Assembly (NCBI RefSeq): GCF_003334765.1
Contig: NZ_QOWT01000022.1
DNA: 64,000 nucleotides
Strand: one strand, 5' to 3'
Source of the DNA: Escherichia coli
GTDB lineage: Bacteria; Pseudomonadota; Gammaproteobacteria; Enterobacterales; Enterobacteriaceae
Position numbers and translations under genes: made by a program. Positions 63,905 to 64,000 of the stretch are shown here, in pieces. The stretch's first letter is position 1, and the number at the start of each line of letters is the position of its first letter. The notes under the pieces were generated by a model that saw only the letters and a program-made list of their open reading frames with translations, did not search any database and was not told the origin of the DNA.

Positions 63905-64000
63905 TTCAGATGTGGGGCGCAGGCCCATAAGCGCTAACTTAAGGGTTGAACCATCTGAAGAATGCGACGCCTCGGTGCCTCGTTAAGACGATGCCTCGCG

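Follow-up and report, generated by a model that had tools for sequence, protein, structure and literature searches.

An IS186 copy probably separates fiu from ybiX at the edge of a 64,000-nt Escherichia coli sequence

The DNA analyzed here, hereafter called the window, is a stretch of 64,000 nucleotides from Escherichia coli (contig NZ_QOWT01000022.1), near the right end of which lies fiu, the gene for a catecholate siderophore outer-membrane receptor (61622..63904, plus strand). According to the list of open reading frames, fiu is an intact ORF of 760 codons ending with a TGA stop at 63902-63904. In blastn alignments, positions 15164..63926 of the window are the reverse complement of K-12 MG1655 887,989..839,227, with 99.988% identity, six substitutions and no gaps. 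Over these 48.8 kb, the substitutions are located at 30888, 36147, 41096, 54198, 57813 and 63182. Five of them change coding sequences, four non-synonymously (gsiD A126T, iaaA S147P, ybiW E184K and fiu Y521N) and one synonymously (ybiO A47), and one lies 44 bp upstream of dps. The change in fiu (63182 T>A, Tyr521Asn) is also the sole difference from the RefSeq-annotated fiu of strain 300709 (NZ_CP025903.1, referred to below as L001). The A allele occurred in none of 5,426 complete E. coli genomes (the surrounding 61 bases gave 3,406 matches, each with exactly one mismatch) and is thus private to the window genome.

Identity to K-12 stops at 63925 (the blastn alignment itself ends at 63926), only 21 bases past the fiu stop. 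In K-12 MG1655, the stop of fiu and the start of ybiX are 41 bp apart, and this spacer reads TGA-ttcagat-GTGGGGC-GCAG-GCCCCAC-TTTTT-GGAGaaattgt-ATGATG; that is, in the uninterrupted arrangement a hairpin, a T-tract and a GGAG ribosome-binding site lie ahead of the ybiX start. The two genes are listed as a Fur-repressed operon (PMC4676285) and have been treated as a single Fur-repressed operon elsewhere (10.1101/2025.02.14.638246). The first-pass annotation was therefore right to expect an operon partner shortly after the fiu stop, and its suspicion that the expected spacing might be wrong can be dismissed, the K-12 distance being 41 bp. Its statement that no such start is visible in the final 96 bp was likewise borne out: a string search for the start of ybiX (ATGATGTACCAC...) found it nowhere in the 64,000 nt, the last 96 bases included. 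What remains of the spacer in the window is the K-12-collinear remnant TTCAGATGTGGGGCGCAGGCC (63905..63925, plus strand, by blastn), which keeps the left part of the hairpin GTGGGGC-GCAG-GCCCCAC, whereas the right arm and the T-tract are cut off.

The sequence that follows this remnant belongs to an insertion element. An exact-string search located the 23-bp terminal inverted repeat of IS186, CATAAGCGCTAACTTAAGGGTTG, at 63926..63948, at the end of the element that is distal to its transposase start. The window has a single copy of this repeat; inverted pairs of it, 1,339 bp apart, are present in L001, in K-12 IS186A (L003) and in the genomes L004 and L005 (the last being NZ_AP022815.1). All of the last 75 bases of the window (63926..64000) match the reverse complement of the last 75 bases of K-12 IS186A without a mismatch, whereas in the other orientation there are 40 mismatches. 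They thus represent the first 75 bases of an IS186 element (IS4 family, "IS421") with its transposase gene insL on the minus strand, comprising the 23-bp repeat plus 52 bases of orientation-specific IS186 sequence, a match far above chance (BLAST E-value of about 1e-31). The alignment to K-12 downstream of fiu, which the first-pass annotation had proposed as a check, accordingly places the divergence exactly at the IS186 repeat, a cause that went unrecognized in that annotation. This tail sequence is multi-copy: it is present in 2,144 of the 5,426 complete genomes, with a median of three and up to 23 places, on both chromosomes and plasmids. One of the matches falls in fimA. Another lies under an ltrA annotation, and the end of a group II intron was considered for this reason; this candidate was rejected, because the tail is identical to IS186 and the match in question is another IS186 copy. 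A scan of the whole window at the Rfam gathering thresholds detected no RNA element near 63905-64000.

The end of a convergent ORF had also been suspected on the minus strand of the final 96 bp. Open frames do exist there, and insL is truly convergent with fiu; however, the frames themselves are chance ones, and insL ends 97 bases past the window edge. Of the minus-strand frames, two run open from this edge to stops at 63934-63936 and 63939-63941. With the base composition of the window, the probability (P) that 21 codons free of stops occur by chance in one or more of three frames is about 0.74, and these frames are therefore no more than chance would give. The longer of the two corresponds to a mechanical ORF of 62 aa (L001 4530-4718, minus strand; window-equivalent 63934-64122), whose stop is inside the IS186 terminal repeat and which overlaps the 3' end of insL on the insL strand, with no sign of being a gene. 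The segment 63926..64000 is non-coding, because the insL stop would fall 97 bases past the window. In short, the convergent-gene hunch is right in its outcome and is not based on a real signal.

The last ten bases before the element, GGCGCAGGCC (63916..63925), are the left copy of a 10-bp target-site duplication and its sole copy inside the window, as judged from the junctions in L001, L004 and L005 against the empty K-12 site. This empty site, GGGGCGCAGGCCCC, contains the target GG-GGCGCAGGCC-CC, which is GGGG(N6)CCCC with the sequence GGGG-CGCAGG-CCCC. All three K-12 copies of IS186 share the same geometry, each 10-bp GG-N6-CC duplication lying within a longer palindromic stem. The original description of the IS186 target consensus is reportedly that of saiSree et al. 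2001. The published target is 5'-GGGG(N6/N7)CCCC-3', for which K-12 has only 19 N6 loci; insertion occurs in either orientation, and some of the sites are used repeatedly (PMC5009759; for the consensus, see also PMC6925257). The insertion at fiu-ybiX thus sits in a GGGG(CGCAGG)CCCC motif preferred by the IS186 transposase. No other GGGG(N6/N7)CCCC motif was found in the 64,000-nt window, so that the fiu-ybiX site is its sole target, here already disrupted.

In the uninterrupted spacer, the target of IS186 coincides with the terminator-like hairpin, the stem of which is split by the insertion. In K-12, this hairpin consists of a 7-bp stem with six G-C pairs, a GCAG loop and a TTTTT run, with a folding energy of -19.3 kcal/mol (z = -2.9 against shuffled sequences), and a consensus scan, which uses sequence features only, scored it as terminator-like. 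The structure is lost at both of the IS junctions, where z is -0.34 (the version seen in the window) and +0.58, as against -2.9 in K-12.

Two of the genomes that share the window's junction, L001 and L005, were read base by base. In both of them, IS186 measures 1,339 bp between its repeat ends, with 0 mismatches to K-12 IS186A, and is flanked by the 10-bp direct duplication GGCGCAGGCC; the remaining spacer and ybiX with its ribosome-binding site follow intact. Both repeat ends are likewise present, 1,339 bp apart, in L004 and in IS186A, IS186B and IS186C of K-12. In L001 and L005, insL is on the minus strand, convergent with fiu. In L001 (4693-5805, minus strand), it encodes a protein of 370 aa with the Pfam domain DDE_Tnp_1 (E = 3.6e-26), the single DDE transposase gene of IS186. 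At the equivalent place in NZ_CP025903.1 and NZ_AP022815.1, RefSeq has an "IS4-like element IS421 family transposase", while the K-12 annotation names the element IS186A/insL1. Projected from these relatives onto the window, insL would occupy 64097..65209 (minus strand) with its stop at 64097-64099, and the ybiX start would fall at 65295, which is 1,295 bases past the window end. The standard downstream gene just beyond the window, which the first-pass annotation had named as the observation that would speak against its suspicion, is thus not what the junction-sharing genomes have: in them, a complete IS186 precedes ybiX.

The window, with its private fiu SNP and a prophage junction differing from that of strain 300709, has no identical counterpart among the complete genomes of the collection; the reconstruction of the far side therefore rests on relatives. 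We infer from these other genomes that the full element and ybiX also lie beyond position 64000 in the window genome.

Taken together, these results point to a copy of IS186 (IS4 family, 1,339 bp, insL) that transposed into the 41-bp spacer of the Fur-regulated fiu-ybiX operon and in which the window ends; we put the probability of this reading at roughly 93%. IS186 would have inserted at GGGG(CGCAGG)CCCC and duplicated the 10 bp GGCGCAGGCC; past position 64000, another 1,264 bases of IS186 ending in ...CAACCCTTAAGTTAGCGCTTATG would follow, and then GGCGCAGGCCCCACTTTTTGGAGAAATTGTATGATG, leading into ybiX. No ybiX start is seen in the last 96 bases because IS186 occupies the spacer and only its first 75 bases lie inside the window. 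For annotation purposes, this explains the absent operon partner, and nothing unusual is hidden at the window edge.

Since the window ends inside the element and the far side lies outside it, the tail might instead be the junction of an IS186-mediated rearrangement, i.e., a deletion or an inversion between IS186 copies, with ybiX not on the far side. Recombination between IS copies is frequent in E. coli (PMC5009759), and related genomes carry 4 to 23 copies of IS186 able to recombine. However, the right junction (IS186-GGCGCAGGCC-ybiX) was found in 29 complete E. coli genomes, matching the 29 that have the fiu-IS186 left junction (29/29), and these are therefore simple insertions, not rearrangement scars. 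The geometry of target and duplication is also that of a primary transposition event, which leaves a rearrangement improbable. A fragment in place of the complete element is less probable still. Only 75 bases are visible and repeats commonly cause misassembly, so a solo terminal repeat, a truncated IS186 remnant or an assembly chimera at the repeat might be envisaged; but the match runs 52 bases past the 23-bp repeat into orientation-specific IS186 sequence, L001 and L005 have the full 1,339-bp element, the IS-ybiX junction is present in 29 of 29 genomes, and complete genomes that were assembled independently show exactly the same junction and target motif.

That there is no insertion at all, with ybiX starting further downstream in all E. 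coli, has nothing in its favor beyond the caveat of the first-pass annotation itself. It is refuted by the 41-bp distance in K-12 and in 5,321 of 5,426 genomes, and by the departure of the window from K-12 exactly at the IS186 repeat; we give it almost no weight.

The transposition of IS186 into the spacer can be set in a wider context by the state of the fiu-ybiX spacer in 5,426 complete E. coli genomes. The spacer is uninterrupted in 5,321 of them, whereas 29 have IS186 in the orientation of the window (orientation A) and 58 have it in the opposite one (orientation B), at the same position and with the same duplication. The guess of a strain-specific difference thus agrees with the census, in which the uninterrupted K-12 spacer prevails (5,321/5,426) and only 29 genomes have the window's junction. 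The fiu flanks of orientation B range from 100% down to 97.9% identity and the backgrounds of orientation A go down to 98.5%, with at least one distinct fiu/ybiX allele background in orientation A. The two orientations and the diversity of the fiu backgrounds indicate repeated, independent insertions of IS186, and therefore a natural hot spot. The fiu-ybiX spacer is among the few GGGG(N6)CCCC sites of E. coli that are occupied repeatedly in nature, in 1.6% of the complete genomes and in both orientations. With a known element and a known target rule, fiu-ybiX::IS186 is an ordinary strain difference. A literature search found no paper on IS186 together with ybiX; RefSeq genomes do carry an annotation of the fiu-ybiX site.

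Some genomes counted as empty have another insert in the same place: in L006 (NZ_CP026491.1, 370-560), for example, a 174-bp REP/BIME-like sequence lies at the GGGGCGCAGGCCCC hairpin, and part of the hairpin sequence recurs on either side of it. This is a second type of repeat element using the fiu-ybiX spot.

The insertion resembles IS186 copies at other sites. IS186A, IS186B and IS186C of K-12 MG1655 (insL1-3) have the same 23-bp repeats, the 10-bp GG-N6-CC duplication and a GGGG-N6-CCCC target in a palindromic stem; the location is different, since K-12 has no copy between fiu and ybiX. Known IS186 hot spots, namely the lon promoter of E. coli B and K-12 derivatives, and fimA and menC in mutation-accumulation lines, follow the same target rule and show either orientation and recurrent independent insertion (PMC5009759, PMC3045373, PMC3861542). 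However, these hot spots are in promoter or coding sequence and have known phenotypes, whereas the fiu-ybiX site is in a spacer within an operon. A "ybiX/fiu" intergenic mutation, not necessarily an IS186 insertion, spread in mouse-gut evolution experiments (PMC10340439).

As for the consequences, the coding sequence of fiu is untouched, while its transcript would lose the native 3' hairpin. The insertion would put 1.35 kb more between ybiX and the fiu promoter, without damage to either coding sequence or to the ybiX ribosome-binding site. A simple consensus scan found no sigma-70-like outward promoter toward ybiX in L001 4400-6000, which is a weak negative, and the same kind of scan detected a terminator-like hairpin with a T-run inside IS186 on the fiu-sense (plus) strand (L001 5075-5094). 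From the 1.35-kb distance, the lack of an outward promoter and the terminator-like hairpin, reduced or uncoupled expression of ybiX would be expected. Judging by these sequence features, it seems reasonably likely that ybiX expression under iron limitation would be lowered or no longer coupled to the Fur-regulated fiu promoter; cases of read-through across IS elements exist, however.

The fiu-ybiX pair is the E. coli representative of the co-conserved pairs of a TonB-dependent receptor and an Fe(II)/2-oxoglutarate oxygenase (PMC12004947). PiuA-PiuC of P. aeruginosa and CciT-CciO of Caulobacter are adjacent pairs like fiu-ybiX, whereas the pair in the window genome is probably split by 1.35 kb of mobile DNA. 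A comparable event has been described in E. coli TOP10 under cefiderocol selection, in which an IS lies between fiu and ybiX, upstream of ybiX; it was read as distancing ybiX from its promoter and accompanied high cefiderocol MICs (10.1101/2025.02.14.638246). In that case, however, the element is named ISKpn8, not IS186, its exact position is not given, and drug selection in the laboratory gave rise to it, whereas the insertion in the window is a natural polymorphism. In the same study, the cefiderocol MIC of a delta-cirA delta-ybiX double mutant was strongly and synergistically raised when KPC variants were present (10.1101/2025.02.14.638246).

A more far-reaching, and doubtful, proposal would be that the spacer is a naturally recurrent switch (87/5,426 genomes), in which IS186 silences or uncouples ybiX, alters the handling of catechol siderophores and predisposes the cell to high-level resistance to cefiderocol or siderophore conjugates once cirA is lost, with Fiu Tyr521Asn as a second hit. 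Such a predisposition would be in line with the delta-cirA delta-ybiX synergy (10.1101/2025.02.14.638246), and the private Tyr521Asn change lies in the receptor gene directly beside the element. Because the fiu-ybiX operon has recently been tied to cefiderocol susceptibility, occupancy of the spacer could be used as a PCR or in-silico marker to be compared with MIC data.

The other end of the window differs from K-12. Positions 1-15163 represent the early arm of a P2-like prophage adjoining rcdA, with the junction at 15163/15164. This arm contains genes for an integrase (13870-15102, plus strand), a CI-type repressor (12974-13630, plus strand), a Dam methyltransferase (9993-10910, minus strand) and a gpA-like replication nickase (7582-9996, minus strand). 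A similar integrase-rcdA junction exists in about 1,063 complete genomes, the best of which is only 98.4% identical and has an 11-bp length difference. Strain 300709, which lacks the fiu 63182 A allele, differs from the window here as well: it has a different prophage, with an integrase of 339 aa beside rcdA. Three consecutive prophage genes at 4152-6902 (plus strand), encoding 333, 359 and 227 aa, match Hp1, Hp2 and Hp3 of PADLOC over their full length (E = 1e-239, 3e-248 and 2e-157, respectively), and none of the three proteins belongs to an NCBIfam family. These genes are probably the candidate anti-phage system of three hypothetical proteins from the hotspots of P2-like prophages.

Collinearity with K-12 starts at K-12 887,989, inside the sRNA gene rybB (887,979-888,057), so that only the last ~11 nt of rybB (window 15164-15174) adjoin rcdA; Rfam gave no match to RybB over the whole window. 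The attachment site of the prophage seems to be the 3' end of rybB. Between the integrase stop and the prophage junction, CTAACTTATTGTTTT is present twice as a direct repeat. The sole Rfam match at gathering level in the window is the sRNA ES036 (CssrF) at 45474-45516 (plus strand, 41.6 bits). This match lies inside a REP-like repeat, and other intergenic loci of K-12 match it at 81-87% identity; because the repeat also matches these loci, the ES036 match may reflect a repeat element and not an sRNA gene in its own right.
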